The notes under the pieces are model-generated. The model was given only the letters and a program-made list of their open reading frames with translations, had not been told where the DNA came from and ran no database searches. A program made the position numbers and the translations under genes. A stretch of 62,056 nucleotides of DNA, filler included, from Sphacelaria rigidula (lineage: Eukaryota): assembly GCA_964200075.2 (NCBI GenBank). It is 7 parts of 7 records of this genome, joined end to end, with 100 filler letters (N's around TTAATTAATTAA, not from the genome) between each part and the next. Parts side by side here need not be neighbours in the genome. Positions count along the whole stretch, not along the records: positions 53,278 to 62,056 come from CAXNAA020010125.1; 6 more parts are not named here. One strand, written 5' to 3'. This document shows positions 9,651 through 62,056 of this stretch, one piece after another. The first letter of the stretch is position 1, and every line of letters starts with the position of its first letter.

Positions 9651-9684
9651 GTGAGTTTTCCCCCCCTACGCTTGACTCCCAAGA

Positions 9685-24301: not shown

Positions 24302-24410
24302 TCCTTCCACACTCCTCCATGCAGCTGAACCAATCGACCGACCATAAAAACTGACTACATCGCCAAGTCAACCATCCTACCTACCAAACAACACTAACAT
24401 CCCTTCACCA

Positions 24411-31120: not shown

Positions 31121-31487
31121 ACGCGCCTTTCCAGTACCGTTACTGCTATTCCCGACTTGAGATGGAGCGCTCCTTACTTTTTTTGAGACTCCGATAACGG
31201 AGCAAAGTAAAACGGGTAATGCTGCATTATCATATGTTGACATGCAACTTGTTGTTATTGTCTCCACTTTGAAAACCGTTCTGATATCTGCGCATTACTC
31301 TGTACTGGACATATGATGCGGAGACCTTCCGTCGTCACAGGCAAAGTACCCAAAATAGGGTATAAGACAATCAAAAAATAAAATCGGCCCCAGAAAAATT
31401 CACCTAGACGCGGTACAAAAACAGTAATGATGAAAAGAAGGGGAAAAAATACTGCTGACTTGCCCATATTATATTTTCATCCCCCTT

Positions 31488-34151: not shown

Positions 34152-36474
34152 ATACGAGTACATGTGCGTGGAAAGTTGTGAGAATTCGGGTCGCCGGTAG
34201 TCAAGTTCGCGGTGTTGGTGATGGGTGGGTATGTGAAAGTTGATGATCGCCCTGCAGGAGAGAGAAGATCCACGAGAGGGAGGCTTATTAACTTCGTCAT
34301 GGACCAAGGAATGAATATGATCTTACATGCCCGCCACGACGCTGGTGGTTTGTGTCAAGAATACACACAACCACTGGGGAAACATTCAGCGCTGAATTTC
34401 AGCTCCGTGGTTATTTGAACCCTGGTTCAACTCTGATATCCGCATTACTATTATTGTTCACCCAGGGAATAGTGAACATTCGAAGTACAATGTTACTCTT
34501 CACTCAGGTGCAATACGACGTGGATTGAAAGCTGCGCAACACTGCGCTGGCGGCAAAATGGTGCCTTCAGGATTTGAATGGGATCAGCTTGCGACGGCTG
34601 GATCAGCGATGTAGCAGCAATATGTTGCTGTCTTGCCAGCGCCCCATCTTGTTATAGATTGAACTTGTTGCTCTTGCTTCTTGTGTCTTTCACCCAAACC
34701 CACCCACCATGCCGAGTGGCAGTGGGTGCGTCTCAATATGACACTCTTACACTCAGAGGTATGGTGTAACAGAGTTTCCGCCGTTTCGTCGGCAATGACT
34801 CCTCGTTGGCTCCTGCGCGGTCCCGAAGTGTTGCCATTTCGGGCCACGATTTGGTCGTTTGTGTTTCGATGCTCTAGCTACTTGGCTGGACGAAGTGCAC
34901 GAGCGCGGTCGGGGTAGTGTTGAGAGAATCCCCCTTGATCGCCTTCGACGGCAAAGCACCGAACCATCACGAATTTCGGTCGAAGTTGCGTTAGCTTGCC
35001 TCCAGGAGATACCCTTCGCTATAATCTGTATGTCGTTATCCTTGCGCTTGGTTGTTCAATCCTCGCGGGTGCTCGCGACGACGCGTTAGTTCTGGTACGG
35101 GCTGGTCCAGCTTTTGACCAGTTGGTGGTGGGGAGAATACTCAGAGAGCCGTTGATGAAAAATGACGACCGTGCCAAGTTGCAGCCACAGCGTATGTACT
35201 GACTGTACTATACTCTAATGCGTGTACCGAGGAATTAATGGAGACTGTGGCATACAGGTGAGCAACCTGAACTCTGTGCCCAGAGTAGTACTTCAAGAGC
35301 GTACGCATCGATCTCCACAGCAAACAGTGTTTTCGTGAGATTGAGAGGGGATGATACGATTGAGAGTGGCTTTGATCATTCGCTTCAAGTGAGTTATTTT
35401 TGTATCCCACGTGTGTTTTNNNNNNNNNNNNNNNNNNNNNNNNNNNNNNNNNNNNNNNNNNNNTTAATTAATTAANNNNNNNNNNNNNNNNNNNNNNNNN
35501 NNNNNNNNNNNNNNNNNNNCTCTGAGTAATCCGACATGTTTTTTCTTGTTCTTGAGGTGATTGGTTGGGGGGGGGGGGGGGGGGGGGGCGTATCGTAGAA
35601 AGTGCCTATTATCTCGAAAGAATCACGAAACTTGGTTCCAGGAGGCAGTGCTCCGAGAAAAACAGGAGGATGCGAACTCATTGTAGATCGAGTATTTTTT
35701 CGAATCTCAGGGGCGAGCGGCGAAGGTTGAAAAACATTATGAGGCGCTTGTTCAGATGTCAAATGTGGAATATCGATCGATTTCAGAACCATAATTTACG
35801 ATCCAGTCGTCGAAAACAGTAGAAGGCATGGTGGGGCTTCAGCGAGGAGGCGACACGTACGTGTGCACAACTTGTTGTCGAACTACTTCCCTTCATTATT
35901 TGTCAAACAAACACTACCTTTTTTTGTTTAGGGTCATCGACGGAAACTTTGCGCCAAATGCCAATATTCGACGCCTGTGCTCTTGTGGGTTGCAAAAGTG
36001 GGGGGAAGTGGCTGACATTTGGCGAGATTCGATGGTTGACGGCATGTCAACTAATACGTGTCGGCTAGTAGTCGCCCCTGGGCTTTCCAAAAGTGACACG
36101 GCACCTATGCAATGCATGACAAGAATGAGGCCACTACAGCTTCCGTTCCCCGCCACAAACGCTGACATCATCTACACCTATTTTTGTGAATATATAAAGA
36201 GTCCTTCGGTCACGGTCTGAAACTACGCAATAAGGATTGCTAGGTGACTTCCCAGTTGCGCTGATCAATGGCCAATAAAATCTCCGCTGATCGCACGGTT
36301 CCACGAGAACAGCTGGCGGTGAACTGGTACAAGCGACCGTCGCCCGTTGTCGACTCGCGTTATGTCGGAACGTTTCGAGTATGTTTCGAGAGCGTCTTGA
36401 CCCGCTCGGCAGCTTGACCCGAGTATATCCCCGCACACCGATGAATCTCTACTTTTGTGTGTGCCGAACATAAG

Positions 36475-37430: not shown

Positions 37431-39839
37431 TTCGATCCTCGGCGTGGCTTTGCAGTGTACAATATCTGTCGTCTTGAATCGTCTGAAGACTTTTCCTTAC
37501 GGACGATTTTGTTTGCCTGTGGTGTTGGATTTTCAGTATTAAAATACTTGATCCAGTTCTTGGCCTCCAAACAGGGAATATCGCCACCACATGTCTTGAA
37601 CACTGTGCATCACCCCACCGAAAGGAGTCTAGCCCACATTTTCGATTCGCTCGGCTACGAGGCTTTGAAAATGGCACCCGAACGAAGATCCAGCCGGACA
37701 TGAAAAAATGTGAGCACGATGTGGGAAAAACGAAAAATTACCACACATTCCCGCAGACACCGTATTTCTTTATGCCCTGCTAAATTTTTGTTCGGAGGTT
37801 ATTCTCGAAACAACCCAGAGCCATGCGAATCGAAAACGACGGCTAGATTCCTCTTGGTGAGATGATGCAAAATATCTTAAACATGTGATGGCGATGCTCC
37901 CTGTTTGCAGCCAAAACCCGTGTCAAATATGCCCGATCAACAACACCCGCTCCCCGCCGCCCGCCCGAAACAAATAGGGAACGGTCTGAAATAATTTCGA
38001 CCTGTTTATTCCTCCTCAGATCAATAGTCGAACAAGTGGTCCATATATATATGTTGCCTACGTGATCGAACACGTGATTTTACAAATTGGGGATGGATTT
38101 TTTATTGGGGATGAGAACCCGGGGAATTCAAATCTTCGTATTCACACCAAATCTCCGAAATATGGTCCCATTTCTTTACTTGCTGATAGCTATTGACAAC
38201 TACTACACGCCATACAAATTTGGATTTCGATGACCGAAATATTGAGGTTCTCGGTGAAAAAACAACTTTGGCGTCCGATTCGACACCCCAAATTCCCCAA
38301 AATTGGTTCTTCACCTAGGAACCAAACATTTCGGTCATTGAAATCCGAATGTGTTTGGCGTGTAGTAGTTAATAGCTACCATCAAGTGAAGAAATGGAAC
38401 CATATTTCGGAGATTTGGTGTGTATTCGGAGATTTTAGTCCTCCGGGTTCTCACCCCCAAAAACAAATCCATCCCCAATTTGAAAAAATGACGTGTTATC
38501 GATTGTCTTTAGTCCTCAGGTCGCAGACACGCCGCCCTACGACGGGGCATAGACTCTGGACTGACAGTGGTCTTATGGCTGGCCTGGCCTTCACTCTCTT
38601 CCTCCCCCACTCCGGCTTTACTCAAAAGTAGAAAAGTCGTGTCCGAGTTCTGCTACTCAGTTTGAACACTCAACACGACTTTAGTGAGAGGAAAGGAAAA
38701 CGTATGCGCCGACCGCCAATCAACCTCAACCCCCGCCTGCGCTCTCTGTTTCGCTCGTTCCATCCTCAGCAGTTCACACGGCGGTACTTCCGCTCAGTCT
38801 TCTCGATACAAAAAACATGGGGATATACTTTCAATTGAGGGCACGGTTGTGACCGTTCGCGTACGGTGTTGTCCTACTGATTGGTTGACGGCTAATGCTC
38901 TGTGCTCAACACCTTTTTGAAACATGCCCAAAACCTTAATAATTTTATAACGACGTTTTTTAGCAACTAGGAGTAATTAGATGAAACGCGAAAAGCAGCG
39001 TGAAATAAATAGAAGATGCCATGTTACTTGTTTTTTCGACGTCTTGGTCTACTATGTCGTTCTGTTTGACTTTTTTCTGCCCTCCTTTTTTTTCTTCAGC
39101 GAATGTTTCCCTTTTGTTTCTCTTGGGTACGGCTATCATGTGACCACGGCTGGATCCCCTGGGGGTCACTTGAAGTGTGACAATCAATCAATCATGCGTG
39201 GGCTATTCGGCTAATGGAGCCTGGACCACACACCAGAGGTGCACAGTTTCTGTTGGGCGTGCGACGCACTGGTCTATTCGACGATCACCACATCTTCACG
39301 CTCTCGCGATATTTTTTGTCGCCTTCAATGGGAATGTGTGTGTTGTCATCTCATCTATCAACAGCAGATCCTGAAAAATGGGGTTGATCTCCAACATGAG
39401 GTTCAAATGGCATATTTTTTCTGCAGGGATGACGCAAAACAGTGACACAGAGCGAAACCATCCTTCCCCCCCAAACTCTGCGACTGTAAACCATCAGTTA
39501 TGGCTAAATACACCGAACGACTGCGGTGTACACGCGTGTCGATGACGATATCACCAGAGAGGGAAGCAACGACAGAGATGAAGCTCCCCGCTCGCGTCCT
39601 CTGTGTGCTCTCGCTGGGCTATTACCAAACGCTCGTGAGACTGGCATCATGCATGTTACCAGCACGTACCGAATTTCTCATGTGCCGGTAGGTATCCCCA
39701 AAGCACATCGAGCTGCGGAGAGATTTCGCCTCTTCTTGTCTCTGGAGGTCACCAATGCCAAGATCGATTTCTCTCTCCCTCTCTTTCTGGACAGGACGCG
39801 CCTCTGTGCGCTGAAAAGTAGGGCAATGTTCCCGACACC

Positions 39840-41250: not shown

Positions 41251-43055
41251 CAAGGTTCCCCTTCGGGAGGTGGGTACGGGCCTCCCGGGGGTGACGCAAG
41301 TCGAAAGTATAAAGTATACTTCGTACCAAAGTATAAAGTATACTTCGTATGCCTTCTCAGTGCAGTGCAAAAAAGAGCGTGAGAAAAACTGCCTTGCTAG
41401 CAGAGAAAACTCGGCAAAAGTGGTGGAAAATGCGAAAGGATACATGTACACAGTATACATGGGTTGAATAAAGAGAGGGAAAGCGCGCGAGCCATCGCTT
41501 TGTCCGCGACAATCGAGCAGGTATTTGTTGCCCCCCGCGAAAAATAAAGAGACGTGAACAAACAAACACAATTGATGAGGGAGCCTCCAATGACATAGAA
41601 CAATTTTTTCGTGAGATTGAGAGTAGAGGGTACAATTGAGAGTGAGAAGCGGTCAATGAGAGAATTAATCGTTTCAGTTCCGAAATACCCCTCCGCGAGG
41701 CCCGATATGCTTTCTGTAGTAGCATGCCACTGACGCCCTTGATATCCCTGAGTACGATACCGATGTGTAACTATAAGCACAAGCCAGTGATGGAGGCAAA
41801 GAAAGGCACGCACGGAATGAAAAAACGGGCAAGTCAGATCGAACGACCAAAGCCACTCTCAATCAGCGCTTTACTCTCAATCTCACGTTCTTACAGGTCA
41901 CGACTTCGAATGCACACCTTTGGCCACAATTCACCTATCATATCATGTATCCGCATTTTCTAATGTGATGATTGGTACTCGACTTTACTTGAATATAGAA
42001 TGAATAAAGTCGTGAGAAAATCCATGGTTTGGGGCAGGTGAGCAGTGTTGACCAGTGGACCCAGGTCGTCCAGAAAGTGTTTTGGTCCAAAATCGGCTCC
42101 AAGGCGTCGATTTGAGCTCTCGCAACGCACGCTTTATTTAGGGCCTTTATTATGGACAAATAGAAAAATGGGAAAAGGTCTGAATTTCCGGCAATCGCCT
42201 AGGGCTCGTTATTATCGAAATCTACTGTGTGCTGTTAGACATCTCATTGCAGATGGTGCTGATCTCGTCGTTTGCTTGCCTTCGCCGGCAAAATGAAGGA
42301 CAGGGTTATGCTACCTGCCGTGTATGGCGTTCATAACTGTGGCAAACATATTTCTCACAACCTCTCTGTGACACCGGGGGGCAGTCGGATAGGCAAGGGC
42401 GTGATCGACCGGCTCTCTTGGGGTGCTGCAGGAGCACACATGAGTAAAAACACCGACTGTAGAAAGCCTCGTGCATAGATTGCAGCATGCTTGCTTTCTG
42501 TGAGTTTTATGCGTAGATACAACAAATAAAACCACTAGCTAGACACTTTCAGACGGTGCAGTAGCGTACACTCGTAGCAGCACTACAGGCGAGTAGGTAG
42601 CTACTGGATTGTTTAATTGTTTCTGCTCTTCGCTTCGAAAGTGCGTATGTCTGCAAACGACGACCACCGTGGTTGGCCCCAACAGCTCCAACACCGCTGC
42701 CAGGGCACACACGGTCTGAGAAAATAGACACCGCCAACCCGCGGTGCTTTTTACTCTACGATATAGCCCAGGGTGTCACTAGCAAGGTTCCTGATTATTC
42801 TCGCACGCTTGCGAGCGCCACAGCGTCCGCCGAGGGCAGCTCTGCGAAGTATTGCGCTGCGGTCCGAAATATTTGGCGTCCGCCAAACGTGAAGGCTTGG
42901 CGGGAACATTTCGGCGCTCCATTTTGGGAGAAAGCCAAGTGCCAGGTGTGAAAACGCCCCAAATCTTGGCGATCTTCCAAAAAGCTGGGTTGATAATAAC
43001 GGCCCTTGAAAAACACTCTCTTTGCCCGAGAGTTATCGGTATGCCTTGGTCGATG

Positions 43056-43081: not shown

Positions 43082-44486
43082 CGTGGCATCTCCAAGGTAC
43101 CAACCATTGTTTAGGTACATTCCTTTAGGTCCCTTCTGTGAAGTACTTGTGTAGGGATGCATTCTTGTCACAAGGACCTATCTGTCATCCCCGTCACAAG
43201 AGCATCCCTGCGCCGGTACTGCACAGGTGCATCCTTTGAGCGACCGCTCTCTTACGGGTTGCATACTCACAGGGATTTCGTCACCCCCCTGCACTGATCC
43301 TCCACAGCTGACCAACAGTGAGGACGTTTGCCGACGTGTGTGCCTTGTTCAACTTGCCAACGGCTCATTGCACGGCCTTGGTTTTGCTACTGACTAAGAG
43401 GAAGGCAATGTTCAATTGTTTCCAAGTGCTTTGCTCTCATGTTCTCGTGACATTCGCTGCATAACCGCTGTCTTCGTGCTCCCGAATCAACGAGAACGCA
43501 AATAAATACCCCGCCATGAACAGACTGTTGTTGTTTTAGTTCCTATTTGAAGTTTTCCATCATCTTCAAGCGGCTTTTGTGGCTCGGGAGCGACACCCCG
43601 CAAGAAAGAGCCAGTGTGGGCGACTTCCGATGGCCAGAACACGCGCTACAGGTATCAGATGACCCAAACCTAAAGGGTAATGTACCGCTGCGCCTTCTTC
43701 GTGCACTGCAAAAGAAAGCGCGTGATAAGACGCCCTGCCGCCAGAGAAAACTCGGCAAAAGTGGTGAAAGATGCGAAATGATACATGTACTTGTATAGTA
43801 TATGTATGGAATATTCCGAACTCACGAGCGTCAAGCATGCTTTGTAACGAGGCGTCCACGAGTTTCAATGCTGATTTCAGTGTTCAAGTTTCTCCGCACC
43901 CGCCCCGGGAGATGACTGTTCGGGCCAATGCCAATGCTAGGGGTCCGGTTAGCAGATTCGTACTTTGTGCGGGGGTACACATGCGTTCGCGACCGTTCGA
44001 ACGGACGCGCGATCGCGGTGGTCCTGCGATGTTTCCGGCGGGCATGAACATTTCGAGAGAGGATCTTTTCTCACGAGGGCTTGACAAGGCAAGAATACTG
44101 AGACCCTCAAAAAAGACGGACGGGACAGGGGCGCAGCCCCGGGTCCCGTGCGGCTTGTGTGTGTTTGTGTATATATATATACATAGGGTCAATTAGACCT
44201 ACTCTTAAAACAGTACACTTCACAAAACCCTTCAGCTCTACTTCATCCTGCGACATTTTGCTTTTTCGAAAGCTTGATAAGATAGTGCAATGTTTTCCNN
44301 NNNNNNNNNNNNNNNNNNNNNNNNNNNNNNNNNNNNNNNNNNTTAATTAATTAANNNNNNNNNNNNNNNNNNNNNNNNNNNNNNNNNNNNNNNNNNNNCT
44401 ATGGCAAGCAGGATCATGGGTGCCCCCCCCCCCCCCCCCCTATCGTAGGATGACTCCTTCGTCGATACCTGCGATCTGCTTCCCCC

Positions 44487-46984
44487 ATGGCCCACACCCG
44501 GGCAGCTTGGACCACCGCTCCTAACGCGGCAGCTTCAGCTCCTGCGGCTGCAGACATCGACACAGATGCTAAGAGCATCCGTGTCACGCCCCCCACCCCC
44601 ACCGTGGCAGCGACTGCAGCTCCCGACACGGCGGCCGCGGATGATACCCCCATCACGGCTACTGATGCGGGATTGGACACTTCGCCGCAGGATTCTACTG
44701 CCACGGGTTCGGCTCCGGCGGCTGCACCGGGGTCTCTCACGGACGACCGCCCCCTGTTGGGCGTCGAGCATTGCCCGCCGGGCCTCCTGCCCCGGCTCTG
44801 GTTACGTGGTCCCCGCTCAGACCAGGAGCAAATACTTGCTGAGTGCCAGGCATTGCAACCGGCCACTCCCCCTCCGCCGCCCTCACCCCGCCAATCGGCG
44901 GAGGCCGCTGCTCCTACTATCCTTCTCGATGACTTCACGGCACGTCTCACGCGCCGACGTCGAGCCGTCGACTCGGCGACCAGCCGCCAGCAGGCGGCCC
45001 AGGAGACTCTGAATGAGCGTCTCGCTGCCTTTGAAAGGATGCGCGACACCATCCGGCGCGATGAACACCGCCTGCGCCAATACACCGCGGCCACGGCCAC
45101 CGCCACCTCGGCTCTCCGATCCTTGGAACAGGAGCGACACCTTTCTCTCCTGAGGACAACGCCGACCGCGTCAGCGCCTGCTTCTACTTCTGCACTTACA
45201 GGCTCAGCGGAGACCCGTCAGCCCTCGCGCTCATACGCTGCTGCTGCCGCCCCCACGGCCTCGCCTGCGCGCACTTCGCCAGCGCGACCGCAGGTCCCTC
45301 AGGCCTCAATGCCCCCTGCCCTCACACCTTGGCTCCGCCTTCAGGGCAGCGAACGAGCTTGGCTTTCATGGACGCTCCGCCAACTTTCGGGCAAGTATCA
45401 TCGCACCAACGTTCTCCGCGCCTCCGAGCAGGCTTGGCGCTCGCTCACACTGCCCATAAACAGTGTGATCGTCCCCTTCTTTCAGCGAGGGGGACAACTG
45501 CCTAACAACGACCCGGGCGCGCTCACTATCGAACGACTGGTACTGTACCTAACGATTGGTACCGGGGACAATCGTTCCGCCTACGAGACTGCCGCCGCTG
45601 CCCTTTTCACGGCTATGCGTGCCGCTCATAACACGCTATCACCCGACGATGATGATGCTTGGACCACACCCCACCCCTCTCATCACCGTGGTGATGACGA
45701 CGATTTCGACGACGAACGACCCGGCGCCGAACCGCGCCGCGGTCAGGGCACCACCCGTATGCACAACAACGGTCGCCGTACAACCCGGGGCAGCCATAAA
45801 CGCTGCGGCAACCAATCTTTAATCTCGTCTACAACCAGACACCGTCAGTACGCCTCAACGCGATCCGCACGGCCCTCACCGGCCGTCAGATTATCGACTC
45901 CTTCTTCCCAGCAATGGATCAATTTTGTGCCGGCGGGCAAACAGCGCCCCTACTATTCGGCAATTTGGAAAGGCGCATCATAAATTATTTTGATAAGTCC
46001 AATCAGGCAGGCGCCATCAACCGCCTCAGTTCCTTCGCCGTGGCAACAGACGTGCCCTTTGCTGACTACCTACGAGAATTCAAGCTTTTTTTGGTGTCTA
46101 GTGTAACTGGTACTGGCTGACAGAATGGCCCTAGTGGTGCTATGTGTCAGACATATGTTCGCAATAGTATCACTCAGCAATTTCCGACGCTGATGCCGTC
46201 TCTGTTTCCGGGCGCTTTGGCGCACAAAGAGGTGCCTTACGCCTCCGTAGACGCGATGTGGACTGCGTTTATAGATCAAGAACATAAGTCAACGCCTGCC
46301 ATTCGTGGCACACAGTGTTCTTCTGGGTCTTCGCAGAACTTGCGTGCCGCATCCAAGAGTACCTCCGGGTCTCGTGGACGCACTCACACTTTTTCCGGTA
46401 ATACTGGGCACGCAATTCTCTCGGTCGTGTCTGTTCATAGCAAAAAAGACCCCTTCCGAGCAAGCTTCGACGCTTGGCCTTATTCGGCAGATACTTTTGA
46501 TGAAGTTTATGTCGTTTCCACAACTGCTTTCATCACGAATGACCCACATTTGTGGACCCCCTTGCTTTCGCCTTCGGCTCACAAGGATGCTTTTCGTCAC
46601 CATGCTAACACATGTATCAACTGTAATGGTACTGGCCACAGTATGCGTGACTGCCCTGAATCTTGCATCAATACTTTTTCGCTCATGAACCCTGAAATTC
46701 AGAGCAACGGGCCGGCGTGGCGCCGATGGCAAAAACGCATGCGCGAGTATCGTACACCGTCTCGCCACCATCGCCAGCCTTACCACAATCATAGCGACTC
46801 TTGCTCAAATCGCGACCGTCGCCACACCACCAACACCGTCTCAGGTACTCGCCATCGAGATGGTTCTTTCCGCCCTTCTCAGTCTTCGCATGGTCCTCAC
46901 CAGCGAACGGGGCCGACTCACGACAACTCAAACCCCAATGCCAGAAACCTTGGCTCTTTCATGACAGATCGCAACGACCCATGA
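44487..46984 (+). pseudogene. Gypsy gag-like region (Ala/Pro-rich N-terminus, coiled coil, CCHC knuckle), frameshifted
   Basis: ORFs 44487-45983, 45914-46120 and 46142-46984. CINCNGTGHSMRDC fits CX2CX4HX4C. Confidence 0.8.
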
Positions 46985-48119
46985 CACGCCGACGACGGCG
47001 TGAAGTCTTCGGCGCCGCCGATAGCAGAATCGAAGACTCATCCAACACCCACCGCCGCTTGGATGACAAAACGTTCTCACCCGAACTTCTCCACACTATG
47101 TACGAGATCGAATGACGGCCGTTCTTCTCGACCCTCGTCTTTATCTTCATACACACAGCGTAACCGTTGTGTTGACTCACCACCCAGCTCTTATGCTTGG
47201 CTCCAGACTTGGTCCTCCGGGACTAAGTATAAATCTGAGGTGTGGGAAGACCGACCGCGGACCCTTGAGGCACAGGCTTTCCTCAACAACCGCACGCACC
47301 GGTTGTAGCAGACTTTCTTCGACTGGTTCTGGTGTTGATGGTTCGAAACTGACCACTTCAACCCCTTCGACTCCTACCCAGCCTGATCGCAGTCGATCTT
47401 CGCGTCGCCCTTCTGCAGCGAAACTACCCCGACATACAACGGACATCACTCGTCCCCTTTCACATTTAGCAGTGCCCTTTGTACCGAGCTTGCCAGCGGA
47501 CAGTCCAAAAGTTTCGGCCTAGCATGCCCCGATGCTGACAACATCACCTCAACTGGACGCAGTTGCAGTTTCCCAAGAAGTTTTGGAAGTTCCTAGCCAT
47601 TTGTCACGGCACGAGAGGAAGCCTCATCGTCATGCCCCCAAGGTCGCGCGAGCATTGACACGCCCCCCTCCCTTCAGCGGAAAATTCCGATCTTATTCTC
47701 CCCAAAAAGCGGCGACTTTGAGCTCGATGACATTTGCCAGGCATCCAAGAGGGGTCCAAGTCGAACCTGTCAGACGGGATCGCTTCCTCCCCTGATGGCC
47801 CCAGTGGCACTTCGCAGCAATCTATTTTTAATGATGACCCTTGTACTTCCAAGCCAGTCATCTACGAGATTGATCAAAATCCTGATTCACGCTGCCCTTC
47901 ATGATCGGATCAGACCCCCGCGCTGTCTCCCGATACCTTTGAACCCCCGCGGATCACCCGCCATCCGTTTTCACGGTCAGTCCGACTAATCCTGACCAAT
48001 TCACGTTTTCTGAACATGGCCCTGACCTCATCGGTGGTAAAGTGTCCGTTGATCTTGCCACCTTCACTACCCGCGTCGCATTACACTACGGCCCTTACGC
48101 CACCACGCGCGCCAAGTGC

Positions 48120-49440
48120 GTCTCGTTGCTAGACAGCGGTAGTGCGCATTCCTCAAAGAATCCATGTGGAACCATATGAAGCAGACTAGCGTTGCTTCCG
48201 ATGTTTGCAAAATCACCACCAAACCTCGCGTTTGGAGCTGGTCTGATTCAACACTCGTCTTCGCCATGGGCCTCATCCCTCGTGGTCGTCCCCAAAAAAG
48301 ATGGCAACATACGCATCACCGTGAATTACAAACGGCTGAATCGCGTCACTGTGGTGGGAAAACTCTCCATACCTCGCATCGACGAAGTCTTTGACTCTCT
48401 CGGCGAAGGAAAAATATTCATCACTTTCGATCTCGCATCTGGATTTTTCCAAAACGCAATTCACCCCGATGCAGTTCCCTTGACAGCGTTCTGTACATCT
48501 TCAGGGCTTTATGAATGGCTTCGTATGCCACAAGGCGCTGCCACAGCACCTGGCTGCTTTCAACGCCTCATGCAACGCGTTACTGACGGTCTCGAGCATG
48601 TTATTATGTATTTAGACGATGCTATCGCTTTTGATGCCTTCCCCAAGGCGCATGTTCGCACTCTACGGGAATTCCTCTCCCGCTTGCGTACACACGACTT
48701 GAAATTGTCTCCATCCAAAGCTCGACTCGGAGCAACTGAATTTGATTTTTTGGGACACTTTATCTCTCCTGCTGGATTGCACCCAGACACGAACAAGGTC
48801 AAGGCTATGACTGATATGCCCATGCCCACCAATATTTCGCAGCTTCGCTCGCTATTGGGCGGACTTTCTTATTATCGCAAATGTTTGTCCAACTTGTCCA
48901 AGCGGATCCGGCCCATCACCGATTTATGGAAGAAAAACGTCCCGTTTGTCTTCACTAAAGAAATGGAAACCACCTTCCGCAAATTGCTCAAAACACTGAC
49001 CGAAAAACCGGCTCTTTATTTTCCGGATTGGGATGCGGTACGAGACGGCTCACGTCTTTTCCAACTACACACCGATGCTAGCACAGATGGGTTCGGCGCA
49101 GTTTTGAATCAGCCCCAATTGGATGGCTCTGTCCGACCTATTTTGTACATCAGCCGCGCAACCCTCCCCAACGAGGCAAACTGATGTACACTCGAACTCG
49201 AAGGCGGAGTCATAACTTGGACTATTAAACGGTTTCGACAGTACTTGTTCCACGTGCCTTTCCACATCTATATAGATCACGGAGCTCTTGAACAACTCGC
49301 TAATGTTGGAGAACATAACCCCCGCGTACAACGGTGGCTGGAGTTCTTGACTGCTTACCAGTACACTGTTAAGATCGTCCGGGCAAAACCAACGGCAATG
49401 CTGACCTTCTTTCACGCTTGCCTCTGCCCCCTAGAGCGGT
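48120..49440 (+). pseudogene. Gypsy protease remnant, reverse transcriptase and RNase H
   Basis: LLDSGSA at 48126 is only ~100 bp before the RT start, implying an internal deletion. RT motifs are SSSPWASSLVVVPKKDG, DLASGFFQ, MPQG and YLDD. RNase H motifs are LHTDASTDGFGAVL, ELE (after a TGA at 49182) and IDH. Confidence 0.95.
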
Positions 49441-50196
49441 AGATTTCAGTCCCGCTTGCCGCTTGACTGAACCTGATGAACCAGGTGTCTACCCCATTCG
49501 GCGTCTTTCTACGCCCACCTAGGCGCTTGACCTGCAATGCCCTGAAACAGGTCTGCACATGGAAGGCCCCCAACCTCTGCCCCCTGATGCAGTTTTGGAT
49601 GGCTTAGCGCCCACAGCTGCTGACTACTTTGCCGACTTCCGCACTTTCGGCCCTCGCGCGAACATCTCGGCGCCGCCACCACCAACTGTTCACCTCATCT
49701 CCGACAACACGCGTTCTCGGTCGGCAGCTCGCGCAAATTCTTCGCGTGCCGTGATACCACCGCCGTCGCCTCGTGCCCCCACGAGCCGTACAACACCTAC
49801 CACAACCGGCCACGCGCCCACTGTTGTACCGACAAAGTCAGCGCCCCTTGCGCGCCCAACGCGCCGATCACGTTCACCAGTTCGCGCTACCCCCCCGCAG
49901 CCTTCTGGGAATCGCCCTGGACCTGCGCCTCTGACTCGCGGTCCGCATACGTCAGATCCGCTTCCGGACCCAATATTGACGTCGGCAGCACCCCTGCTTC
50001 TTCACCTGTACCACACACCCCTGAGCCACCATGTTTGGTTGGCTCTCCGGCTGAAGGACAACTTCGAGAATTTCTCGCTAGCTACTCTCACCGCGATTGG
50101 GCTCGCGACCAACAACAGAAACCGCTCTGTCGCGCGACAATGCGGTATTGACGACTTAACTGTCCCACCCTTTTCCCGGTTGAGATCCTGACAACC

Positions 50197-52287
50197 GTGG
50201 GCACTCTACCCGCCCCCACCGTCTCTGAAGTGCTCGAGCTGGCACGCAAAAGTACTATCTTCGCGACTGACGACGACATCAATTTGCTTGTTCGCCGACC
50301 CAACTCCCATTTGGGCACGGCTGCCGCAGTAACAACTGCCGCTCCGGGACATATGCGTCATGACGCCCCTATCCGCATCTATGTCCCTATCATGATGCGT
50401 CCATGGATCATGAAAGGCTGTCACTCTGATTTGTCCTGCCATTTAGGCGTCACGCGCATGTTAGCGCTCCTTGAACGCTTTTATTGGTGGATCGGCATGG
50501 AAGCATCCACGCGTTTTTGGATCCGACGATGTTTCAAATGTCAGGCTCGCAAAACCTCTCGACAGACTGTACGATGGCCGGTGATTTTCATGGAGCTTCC
50601 AAACGCTCCTGGTCACTTCGTATCGTTTGACTACTTCGGCCCTTTACCCACCACTGACCGTGGTAATACCTACATTCTGCTTTTCACCGATCGCTTCAGC
50701 CGTCACCCGGCTATGTACGCTGTTACTGCTAGCGATTTCACTGCTGCCCGCACAGCGGACATTCTCGTCCATGACTACATTAAGCACTATGGCTGCCCGA
50801 AACGGCTCCTCTCTGACAATGGTCAACAATTTTGCTCCGAACTCTCGGATGCTTTGTACTAGCTCCTCGGCATTTGCAAAATTGCCACGAGCGCCTACCA
50901 CCCTAACGTTAACGGTGGAACTGAACTTGTGAACCACACGATGGCTCAAATGTTATCCATGGTCGTAAACGACCGTCAGAATGACTGGGGCCTTCATCTT
51001 TCGCACGTCATGCTGTCTTACAACAATTCGGTCAACGCGGCTACCGGTCTTTCGCCCAACGAGCTGCATCTTGGACGCTACCCTCGTCTGCCCATCACCG
51101 TTTTCGAAAGACATACCTTCGATGGTCATCAAGGTCTGGAACAGGATCAGATGTCCTACCACGACCTCGCCAGGGCTCGTCAGCGCAAGGCGTTCATTTT
51201 GGTGCGCGAACAACACGCTATCAACGCCTCACGCCTTGAAAGATCCAATACCGCCCTCTACAACTTAATGCACAAACGCCCTACTTGGAAAATCGGCGAT
51301 TGGGTCTGGATATACAATAGTTTGCCCACCATCCGTCAAGGCGCTGACCGCAATGCCCAGGCAACAGTCTTGAAGATGAAACTGTCCCTCAATTGGACGG
51401 GTCCGTTCAAAATTCTCATAGTCGGGCCCTCGCCGACGCCTCCTGACGGCAAGCCTGTTGGCGACAAACTCCTCTACCTCGATTTACCTCGTGACATCCA
51501 GGGACATGACGCTAAATTTCGCGTCTCTGTGCATCGTTGCAAGCCTTGAAAGAACCCGCATGACACTACTGACATGCCTCAATACCTGCCTGTAGGTCTC
51601 ACTCAACACGTGCTCAACAGCTACTCAAAAAAATCTCCACCGTACGACGTTACCACCGATGACGTGACCGAACAACCTCTCCGCTTGGCCGTGTCCCACA
51701 TTTCCGGCCACCAAATCACTCGAGGTCCTGGCGGCAAAATTGCTGTTATGTACAAGACACACTGGCAAGGTCTTCGGCGTGCGTCTTGGGAACGCGAGTC
51801 CGACCTTCAACTGCACCGCCGTGCTATCCTCCTCTATTGGACACAATCCCCGCAGCAACAGCTCGCTGACAACAAGGGATATCGCAACATGAGACGCGGT
51901 GCTGCGACCCGCGAACTCCACCGCGGCAAAGGACTACGTTTTGTAGTCGATGGTTACGAACTCGTACCCACCAAACAATGGGACGAAAAGGTTCGCGCAA
52001 AACAAGAACCGCTCCCTAAAGGTGCCTATTTGTGGTGTAAGGGCAGCGATTACCTCTGGTGGCTAGGTCAGATCCACTCCGTCGATGCCCTCGCGGCCGA
52101 CACGTACATCGTGCGTTTCCTTGACGGCCCTGGGCCCGTTCAGCTCAAGCTTGGCCTCGATTTATACACGACCAGCCCCTCCGCACCCCGCGGTTCTTGG
52201 TGCCTACAACGCTTCAAGTCACACGGCTTACGCCGCGGCCTTCAACGCAATATCGATCGTACACACGACATCAATGCACCATCTTGA
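50197..52287 (+). pseudogene. Gypsy integrase with C-terminal chromodomain and PWWP/Tudor-like domain (one frame, two premature stops)
   Basis: HHCC zinc finger (CHSDLSCHLG...CFKC), catalytic SFDYFGP, SDNG and NGGTE, and WTGPF (GPY/F). Chromodomain at 51685-51840. Stops at 50860 and 51547 are in the same frame. Confidence 0.92.
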
Positions 52288-52484
52288 GTCCTATCTCTTT
52301 GCACTCCCATTATCGCGATTTTCCTCTCTCCTCCCAGTTTGGTTCTGGTACTTCCCTTGTCCCCCCTCAGGTACGCTCTCCTCTTCACTGCTTCACCTAC
52401 GATGCTCCCCTATCGCGGCTCATCTCTGCCCTCATCGGCCCCTTCGACGACTTCCTCTGGACTCCCTTCGCCCCCTTCCATTGG

Positions 52485-52535
52485 TCAATGGTCAAACGAC
52501 TAAGGCAAGCAACAAATGAGTACGCCCCCCCCCCC
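52485..52535 (+). mobile_element. 5'-truncated short poly(C)-tailed repeat with 14-bp TSD
   Basis: cccccttccattgg at 52471-52484 and 52531-52544. Confidence 0.88.
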
Positions 52536-54122
52536 TTCCATTGGCCTCTACGCTGCCACCACTTTGGCTGGCTGGCACTCGACTCTATACGGGTCCTTGA
52601 GTTTTTTGTTTTCCCGCTTGCAGTTGCCACTGTGTCCTTTGCGGGGTTTCCCTTTGCTTCTTATCTAGCTAGCGCGTCAAAGTATTGTGTGCTTTTTCCG
52701 TTTGTTCGCTAGCTCGCAGCAGCATTGTGTGCTACTGCGCAGTCAACCGCAATTGCGTGATTGCGCTTTTTGAGGCACCTTTGGTTTTTCTTGTTTGAGG
52801 TGTGGGAGGATCGGGCACGGGCTGGTCATAGCCCTTTTGGTTTTTTTCGCCTTGTCTGCTCATGGCTTGATGAGTGAGACAAACCTCAATTTTAGTTGCC
52901 CTTGAGATTTAATCGAAAGTCAAATAGAGGTTCGCTACTACTGTTCTCTGTCACACACATGCCCGCAAGGACGGTGCTGCGGCATAACCAGATAGATCCA
53001 ATATGAACTTAGGGGGTGTTATTCATCGTCGATTTTCCCCCACCTCTCCCCAATGAGCGCTTGACCACACGCCAGTTGGGGGGAGTGCACGAGAGATCAA
53101 ACACTTGTGAAGACCTTCTTGACATGCAGAGTGAAAAACGATGTCTATGGTGGTGACCTAACTGCTGCTAGCGTCGTNNNNNNNNNNNNNNNNNNNNNNN
53201 NNNNNNNNNNNNNNNNNNNNNTTAATTAATTAANNNNNNNNNNNNNNNNNNNNNNNNNNNNNNNNNNNNNNNNNNNNAAGCGTGGAGAAAGTACTGTTTT
53301 GAGCTCGAACCTCATTTCATTGATGAACCTCATTTTATAGAACCCTCTGTCATGTACTGACATACCATTTCCAGTGTTGCTGCAGCATGCTGACCCCCAG
53401 AAGACATTAAGGCTAGTCGCTTTAGCTCACTGGCTTGCCGTTTGTTCAACGGTCCAGGAGGATGTTGATTGGGGCCGCCGGCTGAACGCAACCTCCTTTG
53501 GCCGATAGGCGGCCCTGTAATCGGTGAATTGCCCTCCGTGGTGCTGTCCTCTAGCTGAGCTATACCATCGTAGATATTCATGTTGAAGTTGTTTGTGTCG
53601 TCATGATGTTTCTTGTCAAATGCAGATACGTTGGGCTCCTGGATATCCAATGTCGAAAAATCTTCATCACTGCAAGGAACTCCTGCTACTCGTTCGATGG
53701 AAGTGGCGTTTCTGGAGCTGGATATTTTTCCCGAGTAGCGGTTGCAAATGCGGTACGATGGACAACCGGAATCATACCCCACTAGCACTCCTTCCCAAGC
53801 CTTTTCTTCTAACTTACTATGATGACGCTCCCTGTACACAAACGCCCTCGAGCCGATTGTTCGCAAGGATGATAGCTTTGGGTGCTCAAGAAACATCCGA
53901 AAATATGGTGTATCGCCGCCGATGCTCGTGTGCGGTAGGCGATTGATTAAAAAGACCGCAGTTGCAGCAATTTCTCCCCAAAAACATTTCGGCAAATTCG
54001 GTTCGTTCAGGAGACAACGGGTAACGTTCAAGATACTCCGCCCGTCTCTTTCACTGATACCATTTCTGATGAGGAGTATATGGGCTGGTGAACTCTTGAC
54101 GGATGCCCGTAGTCTTGCAGTA

Positions 54123-55756
54123 CACACGTGGGCAGATAGCACCCTGTGGAGGGGGTCTACAGGGTTTACTTACCCTGCGCAGTGTTTCTGGCGGGAATTT
54201 TACTGTACAGTGTTTTCCAGCGTAGCACAGGACGCTCTTGCAGGGTTTCTCTACAGTGGCCATGCACACGTGGACAAATAGCACCCTGTGGGGCACGTCT
54301 ACAAGGTCAAGGGAAACTGTGCAGTGTTTCCCGCGGGATCTAGCTGTAGGGTTTTTTTTGCGCCCCACAGGACGCTTCACAGGGTTCAGGGAAACTGTGC
54401 AGGGTTTCTAGCGGGGATTTGATTGTAGGGTATTATTTTGTGCCACACAGGTCGCTGCACAGGGTTTCGTCACTCCGTGTAGAATTCATCGCTGTTAATA
54501 TGCTGTGCAGCCTTTATAGCGCGCATACAATACACTGCATAGAGCGTGGGCATGGTACTGGCAGAAAAAAACGTTCGAGGAGTGGCAGGGATGAGAACGG
54601 AACTCACGGTTTTGTGCTTGGGAGTGCGTGAGGTTGTACATTGAACTACCTGATTGGTTGTTTCCGTCACAATTATTTTGTGCTTCTAATAACTATCAAG
54701 CAAAAACCTCTCTAAACAAAAGCATACTCGGTTGAGTGATTTTGGTAGACTGCGGACCACGGGGTTTCCAACAGCAATGTGCACTCATATGTGAGGTATA
54801 CACCGCCATATCTGTATCCACATCTTAAGCCAAAGTGTCGTATCTAAACTCGTGGGCGTGTGGACATACACTCGATCGTAATCAGTGTGTCGGATTTCCA
54901 TTCAGCAAAAGCTGTTGGGAATTATTCATCCTTTAGCCCATACGTCTGTGACCACGGGTTCGCGAGATCGGACTAATGTGCGGAAATAATAATAATAATA
55001 GCCCATGTGCATGGACCGGGGGGTAAAAGGATGAATTACTTTCAGCAATTTTTTCTGCTCGTCGCATCCCATATGCTGATAACGGTGCAGTATGCGGGAT
55101 TTGTCCAGCAGCTGACGCTGCTCGCAACGAATATCTTTTTGCCCGATTTCCGGATGAATTGAAGGGCAAAGTGAATATTTCTTTCGAGCTTCTTCTGCTG
55201 TTCAAATTCCAAATCTGCCAGTTTGCATGGGATATGCGCAGCAGAAGAAGCTGTTCGAAATAGATCCTTTTTTCGCTCATTTCAAAAATGGGCGAAAAAA
55301 ATCGATTTTGAACAGCTTCTTCTGCTGTTCGAAATCAATTCTCTTTTTTGCCGAAATAAGTTGGGAGAGAAAAGGATCTGTTTTGAATAGCTTGTCCTGC
55401 TGTCCAAAATAAATTCCTTTTCGCCCGGTTCAAATCGGGTGGAGAGGAATTAACCTCGGACAGGAGGACACGCTATTGAAAATATATAAATTTCAAGATT
55501 TAGTAGCAAAATATTTGGAATTTTCGAAAAAAAAAAGTCAGGGTTCTTTACCAAAACACTACCACATGACTGTGCAGGGCTTTGCCGACAAGCCTACACA
55601 GGGCTGTAAACCCAACCCTGGGGAAAACCCTATCAAAACGCTACGAGAGGTACAGGTATGGATTTTCACTGTCAGGGTTTTTTTCACAAAGACTGTGGAG
55701 GACCCTGTACGTACCCTGCACAGTGCGCCCCACAGGGTGCTATCTGTCCACGGGTG
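54123..55756. mobile_element. Non-autonomous TIR transposon with TA duplication, inserted in the Copia integrase
   Basis: TA-cacacgtgggcagatagcaccctgtgg ... ccacagggtgctatctgtccacgggtg-TA, with many subterminal cagggt repeats. Removing it restores the integrase frame. Confidence 0.88.
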
Positions 55757-55766
55757 TACCTCTTAA

Positions 55767-55868
55767 CCCTTAGACCGCGAGGGTAGGTCACCTGCTGAAT
55801 CGGCATCAATTTTCACTTGAAAAAATTATGCCTAATCCAGATGGACTACCCGCACCGCCGTCGAAGGG
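55767..55868. mobile_element. 102-bp piggyBac-type mini-element
   Basis: TTAA-CCCTT...AAGGG-TTAA with imperfect ~20-bp TIRs. Removing it restores the integrase frame. Confidence 0.85.
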
Positions 55869-58509
55869 TTAAAATTGTCCGCGATGTATTCACCCCCACG
55901 GTCTGACCGCAGACGGTGTACACGGAGTCCTAAAGGAATAGCCAAATCTTGGATGAACCTGCAGAGCGTAGGTAGGGTCTCATCCTTCGTTTTGATGAAG
56001 CAGACTACCTTGAAACGCGAGAAGTGATCCGTAGATTTTGCCATGTAGCGGTAGCCGCCCTGCCCCATGGGCGTCATCGGCCCTGTTAGGCCAGTGCTGA
56101 CCAGTTGCAGTCGTTCCGAAATATTCGTGGAGTCTACGGTCTTTGGGGGGTCCTGCTGTACACTTTTATTAAGCTTGCACGTTACACAAGGTGACAGTGG
56201 CCCCTCAAAGTTCACACCTGATTCAGGAATATTCAGTAGACGGCGCATGACCTGCTCCGTTGGATGTCCAAGTCGCCTATGCCAAATGTCTGCTCCTGTC
56301 GTGGTAGACAAAGCTGTCGGTTCTGCTCCCGCTGTAGCAGACATGGCTGCTGAAACTCCCGGCATGTTGTGGTGAATGGCTTCTGCAACAACGGCTGACC
56401 CGATGCCCATAGATTCTCCTGAAATAATTGTAGCTGTAAATGCTGAGCTGTTATTACTATTACCCGGTTTCCGAGAAACTCTCACGCTGATGTACTGTAA
56501 CGCTCCGTTGCTGTCACTGTTGATTGGCACTTTAAACTGTCCGAGGTCGATGTGGGACTCGTGAAAAGATATAGTCGAAGCCCCCTTTGCAAGAGCTTGT
56601 ACAGGGGAGAACAGATGCTTCCCCAAACCTGGGACAATTACGGCTGGGAGCCGAACAGAACGTTGGTACCCCTCAGAGTCAATGAACACGGTGTTCGGAA
56701 CTCCTTTTGCTGTACCATGTAGTAGATAGCGTCCCGCTGTTAAAATAGTCATCGGGGGATCGAGTTCGAACAGCTCGACCATTTCACGTTCGATATCGGG
56801 TAGCAACTGATCATCCAGAAAGTGTCCAGTGCTGCCGCTATCCACTGTCAACTGAAAATAAATTTGATCGGATGTATCAGTGAAATATGAACCAGAGAGA
56901 AAAGAAAATCCCACACCGTCTGGTGGTGAAGATGAATCTATCACTGTCGCAGCTGTTGATGAAGAAGTTTCTAGACCGTTGTTGTTCGATAGTGCGGTTG
57001 TAGAAGCTGGATCGGTGACGGCTGTGTTGGCTTGGCGTTGATGTCCGTTGGAGTTGTTGCTGCCGATGTTGCTGTTGTGGTTGCTCCTACTGTTGTTGTT
57101 GTTGATGCTGTTGTCACGGCTGTTATTTCGATAGCGGGGGTTTCTGCGACGATGATGGTTATTATTGTTGTTTCCAGCGTTGTTGGTCGCATTCCCGCAG
57201 TTTTGTTGAGTTCTACAATCAGAATCGTCATGCTTGTCAGTATGATGGAAACTGCACCATTTTACAGGCCTGTTCCCGTGGTTTGATTGCATCTGGGAGC
57301 GACAGTCTCTGGCCTGATGTCCTGGTCTCCTGCAGGTGTAGCAATTTCCACGGAATTTCTGGGGTTGATTAAAAAATTTCGATAGTGATGTCACCAGCAG
57401 TGATTAATCGCGGCCATGCGATTTCCCGGAGGTATATTTCCGCGCCATGCGATTAGCATACATATTTCGCATTGTTGTTTCGATCCTCTGAATACTGATA
57501 TCTGGATTACGCTCCGCATTGTCCTTGATGCGGTCATACTCGCTTGTTAAACCTTAGATCACTATGTCAGTCAGCCTTTCTTCGGAAATGGCCTCGCCAA
57601 CGTTGTCCAGTTCGTCGAGGCTGATACACTTTGCTCAAGAAAGTATCAGGCTCTTGCCCTGGTGACATAGAGACGACGTTGAGTTCTCTCATCAAGATCC
57701 TGATTCTCTGCTTCGAAGAATTTTGATATTTGGAAATCAAGGCTTCCCATGCACGTTTGCCGTTGGTCTCTCTGAACCCCTCGGCTGGAAACGCAACAAA
57801 TAACTTGCTGCAGCACAAGTTGTAGATAGGTACAACACGTGGAACAATTGTTGATTGCACCTGGTCCCAACTCTCTATCTCACGCGTGTTACAAATCTGC
57901 CTTACATGTGACACCACGCTTGGAGAACGAGATTCTCGTGTAGAATGATGGTCTTCGGTAGGTCCAGTCCCATCCACCGCTGCGATCGTCTCGTCTCCAG
58001 CGGATGCCTCCACCGATGAAAAATGCGGTCGAACGGACGACTGCTGGCGTGTGGTTTGAGAACGAGTTCTAGAAGGACTAGGTCTTGTGGCAGCTGGTTG
58101 TGGCAGATCTACCTCAGAAAAGTCTTCTTCGAGTTCCGCGGGGCGTTCGACCCCATTGAGAATATCCGCAATCCCCGGATGAGTTAATGAAATGATAGCG
58201 CGCGTAGAGCGTATCCACTCGACGAACTTTGTACCGTCGAACTTGTTGATGCTCTTGATGAGCTCAGTTACAGATGGCTCTCCCGACGTATTCATCTGCC
58301 TCACGATACTAATAAAACTATTCTCTTCACACCTGCAGATTTTTTGGAAATATCTTGATTGTCGCTCCTGTGGCGACCTTGATGTGACACCTCCTCGCTC
58401 GTGCTGACCGATGTAGTCTTGACCCGAAGGCTGATGACCTGAAGACCTAGGTGGTCGCGAATCAACGGCACCTGTTGGCTTATGTGGTCGCGAACCGAGA
58501 CTCAAAACC

Positions 58510-59628: not shown

Positions 59629-59853
59629 GTACGGGAGCATTGGACTCGGGTCACGGAGGAGACACGGTCAGGAGGGAAAAGAGATATATTTGAATATCCG
59701 CTGAATCCCTCAAAGAGCTTGGCCGCACATTTGACAGCGGTGGCACAGGCCAGTGTTGCAGACGGGTGTGTCGTTGACCCAAATTGAAGTAACACGCGAT
59801 GGCGTTGCAAGTACAGCAGTCATGTTCCGCTGTACGACCCCCCCCCAACGTGC

Positions 59854-59925
59854 TCCGTCTCGAAAGGGATGCGTGGTCAATGGTCACACGACTAAGGCAA
59901 GCAACAAATGAGTACGCCCCCCCCC
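59854..59925 (+). mobile_element. Short poly(C)-tailed repeat with 16-bp TSD
   Basis: cccccccccaacgtgc at 59838-59853 and 59917-59932. Confidence 0.9.
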
Positions 59926-60293
59926 AACGTGCGAGAGTGCGCCGTCAGTATACCTGCATGGTTTTTTTTCTTTGGGATTGTCTGAGTATGCTGCGCCGCA
60001 CACACACGCCATTATTATTATTCGGATTATTTCGGCGCATTGGCCCCATCTACACGACCCTTGTCCACATGAGTTCACCCGCCTTTGCAGAACGAACGCT
60101 GCCATTCGTGACATAAAAAAAGAAGCGTAATGCATGAGCGCGCGGTTACCCCCCGGAACGCGCGAAATGTGGGTCCCACTGTGACCAGGATCGAGTGCTG
60201 TCCGCCATGTTGGGATTGATAATGAAGAGGAAAAACATGCAGGGGCACACGTTCTGGGACCGCCCGTGATCGACAGCGAAGAAAGAAGACGCG

Positions 60294-62056
60294 ATGATGG
60301 CAACCGGCGCGGCTGACGACAGCGACAGCTCCTCCGTCTGTTCGGTGGCGGATGGGGAGGCTTTCACCTCTCATGACACCACCATCAACGACGACACAGG
60401 CGAGTATGGATTGAGTATTGAGCGGGGGGGGGGTGATAGTCAGCAGGGTGAGGGCGAGCCGTGGGTATTCGACACGGGGGCTACCCAGCATTTCTCCCAC
60501 GATTCCCATGGGATGACGGAGCACACAGAGTGCAAGGGTAGGGTAGTACGGTGCGCGGGAGGTAGTACTTACCCGATCGTAAGCAGAGGAAATTTGCCTC
60601 TTGCCTTCAGATCTGACGGACAGGATGTAATCCTAAAACCAGTGGATGTTGACCATGTACCTGGTGTCCGTCATCACGTCTTGTCACTCACGAGGGTCCA
60701 ACACATGAGACACACCTTCACTGGTTTTCGTACAGGTTTCAGGGTAGATCTCACTTCAGGCAATAGACTTATAATCCCCGGACAACCACGTCAACTCAGA
60801 ATGTACGCCCGCCACCTCGATCAAAGTGGTAGTGACAAGCGTGTTTCGGCATATGCTGTTATTGCTCTGGGGGCTCCGCCTAGCCCCCAGACCGCTGACA
60901 TCAACGAATTTCACTGTTCCCACGCCCACGTTCACGAGGACTTACTGAGGAAGACGGCGATGCAGCAGGGAAAGCAGCTGGCTGGGGAGCTGCAGCCCTG
61001 CCGCGGCTGCTCATGGACTGCGGGCACCGATTGCAAGATCGACGCACACGAGAGCAGCTAAGTCAGCGTCTAGGGTGTTTGTAGATCTTTCCGGGCCGAA
61101 ACCAGTCAAGTCTAACGGGGGAAAATCGTACACGATGATAGTCCAAGATGGTCACTCACGGCACACAAAGCTGTATTTCCTCCGTAAGAAGGATGAGGCA
61201 AAGAGATACTTCGCGAAATACATTGCATGGGTCTCTCCGAGAAAAATTGAGATAGTCCGTAGCGATGACGGGGGTGAATTCTTGGAGGGTGCATTCGGTG
61301 AAGTGTGCGACAGGGAAAATATCAAGCAGGAGAAGACAACTGCCGACTCACCCCAGTTCAACGGTGTTGCAGAGCGAGCGTTAGGTATTATCGAAACAGC
61401 AGGCCTTGCGGCCAGAATCCAAGCGTTTGAGCTGTACCCAGATGAGCGCATCCCAAATGGGAACAGCCTGTTGGCTGAACAGGCAAACTGGGCGTGTCAC
61501 GCCCTAAACTGTACCGCTACCTCGGCTAACCCGCACCACGAATCACCGCATGAAATGTGGTATGGGTCGCCACCGGAAGGTGGTCTCATTCCGTTCTTGA
61601 AGCCTGGTTTTTGTAGGAGGAAGCGGAAAAATAAATTACAGCCGAAAGCCGAAAAATGCTGGTACTTAAGCCCAGCCCCAGGCTACCCACGTGACGCAAT
61701 TCGAGTTCTGACTATACGCAGAACTATCTCCGTGACAAGACATGTAGCGTGGGCACGTACGTCCGCTGCTCCCCCCCACACACTACACCGAGCGAGCCAG
61801 ACGCCGGGCGAGCTGAAGGGTTCCAGCGTCGATCAAGGCCAGGATGTGGGTGGAGACAGGACGGAAAGCTCGACGGTGAACACTTCGCCCAGCTGTTCCT
61901 CAAGTGCGCCGTCCTCCCCGCCGAGCTTCGTTGGTGGAAGGGGCGGAGCAGCACCGCAGATCCCCGTCAGTAGTGAAGGGGTCGAAGTGCCTTCCCCGTC
62001 CCCGCGAGGGGGGGCGGAAGGCAGGGTGATACTAGAGATTCCAGTTCCAGGTTTTG
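60294..62056 (+). mobile_element. Second Ty1/Copia remnant (protease, GAG-pre, integrase), frameshifted
   Basis: WVFDTGATQH and FHCSHAHVHEDLLRKTA...CRGC. In another frame, VFVDLSGP, IVRSDDGGEF and TADSPQFNGVAERALG. Confidence 0.92.

Follow-up and report, generated by a model that had tools for sequence, protein, structure and literature searches.

The closest described systems are cytosine-tailed LINEs of the RTE-X kind with C-rich target site duplications (TSDs), curated for Ectocarpus (PMC12477816, available portions). RTEX-1_Ec32, 5.5–5.9 kb in length, is entered as "single EN-RT ORF; (C)n 3′" and RTEX-2_Ec32 as having "(C)n termini/TSD"; the same source describes, as non-autonomous partners, RTEX-N1_Ec32 (604–607 bp), which has a 60-bp 3′ end 83% like that of the LINEs, weak 5′ homology, tandem copies and a C-rich TSD, and RTEX-N2_Ec32 (188 bp). 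A young RTEX-1 is reported from Saccharina (PMC4421812), an ORF1 bearing an esterase is found in some RTEX (PMC3905857), and the top Ectocarpus repeat, Sower, makes up ~2.5 Mb (PMC3145265). Sower is probably RTEX-N1_Ec32, since each ranks as the top repeat with about 2.5 Mb; the word Sower is absent from the main text of PMC12477816 (2025).

Two further systems resemble the elements reported here in part. In stringent-type LINE/SINE pairs (RTE/TS SINE, BovB partners), a common structured 3′ tail that is not poly(A) is read by the LINE reverse transcriptase (RT), as may be the case here, but the tails tabulated for green-algal RTEX and for RTE, such as (TTG)n, (CA)n, (CAA)n and (CCAT)n, include no C homopolymer (PMC3747384, Table 3, partial text). 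Chlamys Penelope-like elements insert in a targeted manner at (CA)n and (C)n; their (C)n bias is alike, whereas their GIY-YIG endonuclease and pseudo-LTRs differ (PMC8557442, partial text).

The stretch of DNA analyzed here (the window; 62,056 nucleotides from Sphacelaria rigidula) consists of seven contigs of ~8.8 kb with N spacers between them, drawn from an assembly of 244 Mb in 27,214 contigs. A brown-algal host agrees with the element's protein, whose nearest named relatives come from Ectocarpus, and with an algae metagenome label on one of the public runs that contain the sequence. A preliminary description had reported in it a short C-tailed unit, recognized no such system and suspected a non-autonomous retroposon. 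The unit is the 3′-terminal ~67 nt of a ~5.9–6.1 kb single-ORF LINE encoding an AP endonuclease (APE) and RT. This LINE is like RTEX-1/2_Ec32 in its single EN-RT ORF, (C)n 3′ end and C-rich TSD, at 5.85–6.08 kb against 5.5–5.9 kb, and it appears RTE-X-like by descriptions and layout. The host species differs, and the likeness is one of description and protein identity: Ectocarpus proteins from ORFs without element names are 54–71% identical to the LINE lineage and have the same terminal peptide motif. The available text of PMC12477816 holds no TSD lengths, 59–72-nt length mode or RNA fold for RTEX-1/2_Ec32. Since the system is already catalogued in Ectocarpus, the surprise is limited. The kind of LINE, (C)n-tailed and inserting at C-runs, is thus known; the 59–72-nt mode and the (ATT)n-tailed relatives with the same 3′ module were not found in print, and a search of the open-access literature returned nothing relevant on poly-C-tailed retroposons, truncation hotspots, a length mode, an RNA fold or a tail swap. 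What is unusual is that most copies stop near the same length, where a conserved, folded RNA end has its boundary.

Copies of the Unit in the Window

The four copies named in the preliminary description are all present, each on a separate contig (59850–59916+, 52482–52524+, 24233–24297+, and 17605–17660−). The focal copy, at 59850–59916 on the plus strand, is a 67-nt 3′-terminal piece of the LINE, 97% identical to the end of an intact public relative (L213, see below); codons at 59852–59908 specify the last 19 ORF residues, the stop codon TGA lies at 59909–59911, and a closing stem plus two hairpins are predicted. It is bounded by an exact 16-bp duplication that starts in a C-run (59838–59853/59917–59932). 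The 5′ copy of this TSD (59838–59853, +) comprises a C9 run plus 7 nt, of which the last 4 nt overlap the element's first 4 nt from 59850 on and so amount to microhomology; a C9 tail is merged with the 3′ copy (59917–59932, +).

The second copy (52471–52544, +) is a 43-nt LINE end at 52482–52524 followed by a C11 run at 52525–52535, and its 14-bp TSD (52471–52484/52531–52544) is likewise exact and starts in a C-run, so that both short duplications were correctly described. An older 65-nt LINE end (24233–24297, within 24155–24378, +) stands between direct repeats of 80–81 bp (24155–24234/24298–24378). The ~81-bp duplication earlier placed at 24154/24298 does exist and does begin in a C-run, but its two arms are only 87.7% identical, so it is a plausible old TSD rather than a proven one. 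The fourth LINE end (17595–17660, −) has a C10 tail and is cut off on its 5′ side where the contig stops.

Genome-Wide Copies, C-Runs, and Target Site Duplications

The terminal 27-mer of the unit has 2,627 exact matches in the genome, a lower bound on the number of copies, vs. none for the reversed control, and the 40 best short copies are 99–100% identical to the query. Tails and TSDs were assessed in the first 70 listed copies, taken without choosing. The unit is directly followed by C in 66 of the 70, and 15 adjoin another family member; 21 were set aside for the C-run and TSD tests (contig end or N), leaving 49. A C-run of at least 5 lies within 30 nt upstream of 35 of these 49 copies, against 63 of 1,653 background windows, and TSDs were detected in 20/49 copies at a loose setting (28/576 control pairs) and in 9/49 at a strict one (1/384 controls). 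These counts uphold the earlier view of insertion by target-primed reverse transcription (TPRT) with variable TSDs starting in C-tracts; against it stand 29 of the 49 testable copies, which have no TSD even at the loose setting.

Exact TSDs, pooled from 55–75-nt copies and loci L001–L030 (n = 20), are 11–20 bp and variable in length. Microhomology at the truncated end, reported previously, holds for the focal copy (4 nt) but is mostly slight: 0–1 nt in 12 of the 20 exact TSDs, with a range of −3 to 7. Of 27 comparisons, 19 have the longer C-run on the 3′ side, 4 have equal runs and 4 have the shorter run on the 3′ side (in two rows a contig start perhaps shortens the 5′ run, and one site enters twice); the element therefore brings its own tail beyond the run of the target. 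Many head-to-tail (tandem) joints of the unit occur in public contigs. No RNA data set was among the listed public runs with the sequence, which has no bearing on expression. No public contig examined has the focal site without the insertion, and a second strain, with SNPs of its own, also carries it.

The Parent LINE

Copies that extend upstream of the unit reach at least 1.45 kb into RT-coding sequence; the unit itself encodes the last 19 ORF residues plus the stop, with the C-run starting 7 nt past the stop. It is thus the coding 3′ end of a LINE and not, as had been proposed, a separate non-autonomous family by origin. The linked endonuclease piece, used as a genome query, gave 958 candidates, of which 150 were scored, and 20 loci were picked from this match list for room downstream. 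Nine of the 20 reach the ORF end (endonuclease, RT, C-terminus), and all nine finish with the unit and a C-rich run; the remaining 11 are cut off, truncated or interrupted. The search for long elements with the same 3′ sequence, suggested earlier as a check, accordingly supplied the postulated RT-plus-endonuclease partner, which the preliminary description had been unable to name: an APE+RT LINE contiguous with the unit.

Three complete spans of full-length-like copies measure 5.85–6.08 kb, and six copies have a common 5′ end 1.6–2.6 kb before the endonuclease. The element has a fixed 3′ end and 5′ truncation, without LTR or TIR. One long ORF of ~1,330–1,380 codons comprises an N-terminal extension, AP endonuclease, RT and a C-terminal Cys/His knuckle, and a CxC...H...C motif is present in the intact relative L213, in public proteins P0002 and P0004, and in their relatives. 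A Cys/His knuckle after the RT is typical of RTEX. No long ORF was found upstream of the main ORF across 12 LINE copies, and an esterase ORF1 was rejected, its motif-like stretch lying outside any open frame; this does not exclude RTE-X, since the Ectocarpus RTEX-1/2 are also single-ORF elements.

APE and RT domain matches are weak in the broken LINE copies of this genome. L213, however, has an unbroken ORF of 1,382 codons with Exo_endo_phos (E 8e-11) and RVT_1 (E 7e-32) matches, after which come the unit and about 13 C, and is 75% identical to the LINE copy L129 over 4.9 kb. The public proteins P0001–P0004 terminate in the peptide encoded by the unit, and two marine-metagenome sequences (L208 and L209) terminate like L213 in the unit and a C-run. 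No intact or young full-length LINE was found in this genome, where the best endonuclease matches nearly all hold stops and the long copies are 70–85% identical to one another; the fragmented assembly may hide young masters. No relatives were found among viral contigs.

Upstream of the endonuclease, the 5′ region of the LINE carries a variable array of ~63-bp tandem repeats (L120, L129, L131, and L136; 1.4–2.0 kb upstream). The first ~110 residues of P0002, P0004 and the L213 ORF form an N-terminal extension without a Pfam match that is conserved with Ectocarpus P0150 and that, by eye, may be RRM-like. A Pol III-type SINE, which would have a tRNA-, 5S- or 7SL-derived head, was also considered and rejected: the window contains no tRNA, and L129, L047 and L212 have no relevant Rfam match.

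The 3′ RNA Module and (ATT)n-Tailed Relatives

The predicted fold of the unit, a closing stem and two hairpins, has an energy not beyond that of shuffled sequences (z −1.27). Distant relatives of the LINE, mostly with 45–59% amino-acid identity to a distant query, occur in contigs of MAG records and retain both the module and the terminal peptide motif. In an ungapped alignment of 11 sequences that represent five lineages, 92% of the cells of the second hairpin are paired and two pairs are changed on both sides, with a covariation of 0.211 compared with 0.099 in shuffled and at most 0.148 in slid alignments; since the aligned sequences are relatives of one another and one of them supplied the structure, this covariation is support, not proof. 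The first hairpin has one double change, seen by eye. Rfam returned no match in L129 and, in L047 and L212, only two matches, both at chance level and neither within the element ends. A hammerhead or HDV ribozyme in the element ends was discarded, as neither topology fits by eye.

The distant relatives terminate in (ATT)n-like repeats rather than C (L211, L212, L214, L217, and L219); the ends of two others, L226 and L220, are degraded. Because these relatives have the module but an (ATT)n tail, poly(C) is a lineage-specific tail on a shared module. The records that hold these sequences (L211–L241) are MAG records labeled Nitrospirales, Nitrososphaerales or uncultured bacterium, many of the sequences being in one bacterial-MAG record, and the LINEs are of eukaryotic type; these records probably contain eukaryotic host DNA.

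A Sister Family of ~565 bp

A non-autonomous, non-coding family of ~565 bp has its last ~60–70 nt and C-tail in common with the LINE, and ~45 nt in common with the LINE 5′ end, where homology is weak. In the genome it has 6,078 candidates, of which 40 were scored (82–85% identical), and 1,725 exact terminal-word matches. It is like RTEX-N1_Ec32 in its 3′ end common with the LINE, weak 5′ homology, C-rich TSDs and tandem copies, whereas the 67-nt LINE-type unit is much shorter than RTEX-N1_Ec32 or RTEX-N2_Ec32 (PMC12477816, available portions). The lead to Sower given in the preliminary description would accordingly apply, by size of genome share, to this sister family of ~565–600 bp and not to the unit.

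At least eight pieces of the family lie within the window. One full-length copy with the 3′ module common to the LINE is followed by C20 (31487–32066, +), and a second full-length copy is on the opposite strand (29308–29876, −). Three copies are 5′-truncated, one with a C-run (10891–11384, +), one interrupted (20000–20649, −) and one with a C-rich tail (5043–5254, +); the others are a short 3′ fragment (7802–7887, +), a 3′ end with a C9 tail at a contig start (17761–17818, +) and a family member's 3′ end with a C18 run, also at a contig start (44399–44440, +). A ~50-bp repeat is found at the 5′ end (31487–31533) and again ~98 nt from the 3′ end (31952–32002) of the first full-length copy. Among 26 copies, no 5′ end falls at 54–79 nt, the position corresponding to the LINE-end length mode, and seven fall at 80–107 nt, near the start of the internal repeat. 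Both repeat sites are common 5′ ends of copies in the window and among loci L032–L060, a hint of a start or processing signal inside this family.

The Length Mode of LINE-End Copies and Its Explanations

Once the 14 of the 70 sampled copies whose 5′ end is at a contig end or N are excluded, 35 of 56 copies measure 59–72 nt, 11 are shorter, one measures 73–112 nt, four 113–130 nt, and five are longer. The constant C-tailed end of the preliminary description is therefore confirmed, while the other end, described as variable, is in fact clustered. A second small cluster of 5′ ends lies at 118–126 nt (4/56, with several more among L061–L090). Exact 27-mers number 2,627 and 2,279 inside the unit vs. 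718 and 264 just upstream, a drop that partly reflects divergence, the sequence that contains the upstream words being more variable. Short copies are also less diverged from a natural reference, with 19 mismatches in 980 positions vs. 16 in 280 in longer copies (Fisher p = 0.0016). Loop variants are common to short and long copies, none in the unbiased sample being short-only beyond small counts, and junctions seldom carry flank from a source locus.

Whether the unit might belong to a Chlamys-type Penelope-like element bears on its origin, and for this reading speak the (C)n targeting of such elements (PMC8557442, partial text) and their presence in Ectocarpus, together with the terminal direct repeat of the ~565-bp partner. 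The contiguity of the unit with an ORF for AP endonuclease and LINE-type RT, not GIY-YIG, refutes it, and Chlamys-1 of Ectocarpus is entered with an (A)n 3′ end (PMC12477816, available portions); such an origin is virtually ruled out. It is also highly unlikely that short-read assembly produced, as artefacts, both the length mode and the age gap. The 27,214 contigs and the fraction of sampled copies that stop at a contig end or N would be expected under that explanation, but copies of 28–58 nt, which are easier to assemble, are rarer per base than those of 59–72 nt (11 vs. 35, p = 5e-10), loose ends in four public runs likewise pile up at 59850–59851, and the length profile of the sister ~565-bp family, taken from the same assembly, is a different one. 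The length mode is not accounted for in this way, though the age gap could be.

Of the biological explanations, the likeliest for the 59–72-nt mode is that LINE transcripts may repeatedly give rise to a template RNA with its start at the module boundary, a proposal that we consider evenly poised between right and wrong. A somewhat doubtful reading is that the 59–72-nt copies are a self-propagating, promoter-less mini-retroposon, in which host-locus transcripts of single or tandem units would be trimmed to the module and mobilized in trans by the LINE protein. The sharp mode, the fall in 27-mer counts, the lower divergence of short copies and the many head-to-tail joints agree with it; on the other side, short and long copies have loop variants in common, source-locus flank is rare at junctions, the variability of the upstream words lowers their counts, and an assembly that lacks young long copies, as this one may, would give the look of an age gap. 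We regard as unlikely a stop of the RT, in which a stem formed by the unit's first bases and LINE sequence ~105–110 nt from the end would halt cDNA synthesis on full-length RNA. Such upstream pairing appears in two of three predicted folds, the interval before the 118–126-nt cluster is nearly empty, and the ~565-bp family, which lacks this upstream context, has no ends at 54–79 nt; yet the 3′ arm of the stem has most ends (65–68 nt) on its far side instead of ahead of it, unlike what a simple stall would give, and the pairing is a prediction only.

Proposed Mechanism and Implications

The unit is very probably the 3′ end of an RTE-X-like LINE that inserts at C/G tracts by TPRT; its linkage to APE and RT, fixed end, C-tail, C-run targets and variable TSD are all observed. 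We propose that the LINE protein would bind the folded 67-nt 3′ module and nick the G-rich strand of a C/G tract, whereupon the C-tail of the RNA would pair with the freed G-run and prime cDNA synthesis, and a second nick 11–20 bp away would give rise to the TSD. This scheme of nick, pairing and second nick rests on established knowledge of TPRT. The C-tail would probably be contained in the transcript, from the genomic tail of the parent copy, rather than be added by a polymerase.

The LINE would thus offer a natural example of TPRT in which C/G pairing takes over the priming role of A/T-rich tails, and its copies, as a naturally occurring deletion series, would narrow down to about 67 nt the RNA that an RTE-X reverse transcriptase requires. 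A close pair of lineages with the same module and (C)n vs. (ATT)n tails makes a joint change of tail and endonuclease specificity testable, and thousands of near-identical short insertions represent markers, as well as a cause of assembly breaks, in brown-algal genomes. A wider proposal, which we offer tentatively and consider rather more likely to be wrong than right, is that the last 67 nt, overlapping the final codons, form an ancient structured module conserved from brown-algal to distant, probably animal, lineages; that tail and target were swapped from (ATT)n to poly(C); and that the module is here released as a discrete RNA, a minimal retroposon without a promoter that retrotransposes by itself, is more numerous than its parent and creates fresh C-run targets for later insertions.

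Other Repeats in the Window

Two broken Ty1/Copia-type elements flank the focal copy (53330–58508, −, and 60270–62055, +), with Pfam matches to gag-pre-integrase, integrase, SH3-like and Pol beta-barrel domains. A broken Ty3/Gypsy-type element (44454–52287, +) has zinc knuckle, RT, RNase H and integrase matches (Pfam) and, after the integrase, a last frame of 245 aa without a Pfam match that could be a chromatin-reader-like extension; the LINE-end copy at 52482 lies ~200 bp downstream of this element. Self-comparison of the window revealed further interspersed repeats at 5445–5957, 15121–15632 and 16268–16548, at 9681–10119 and 38069–38482, and at 28442–28735, 35323–35419 and 41599–41887. Some of these other interspersed repeat families are palindromic or inverted (MITE-like).
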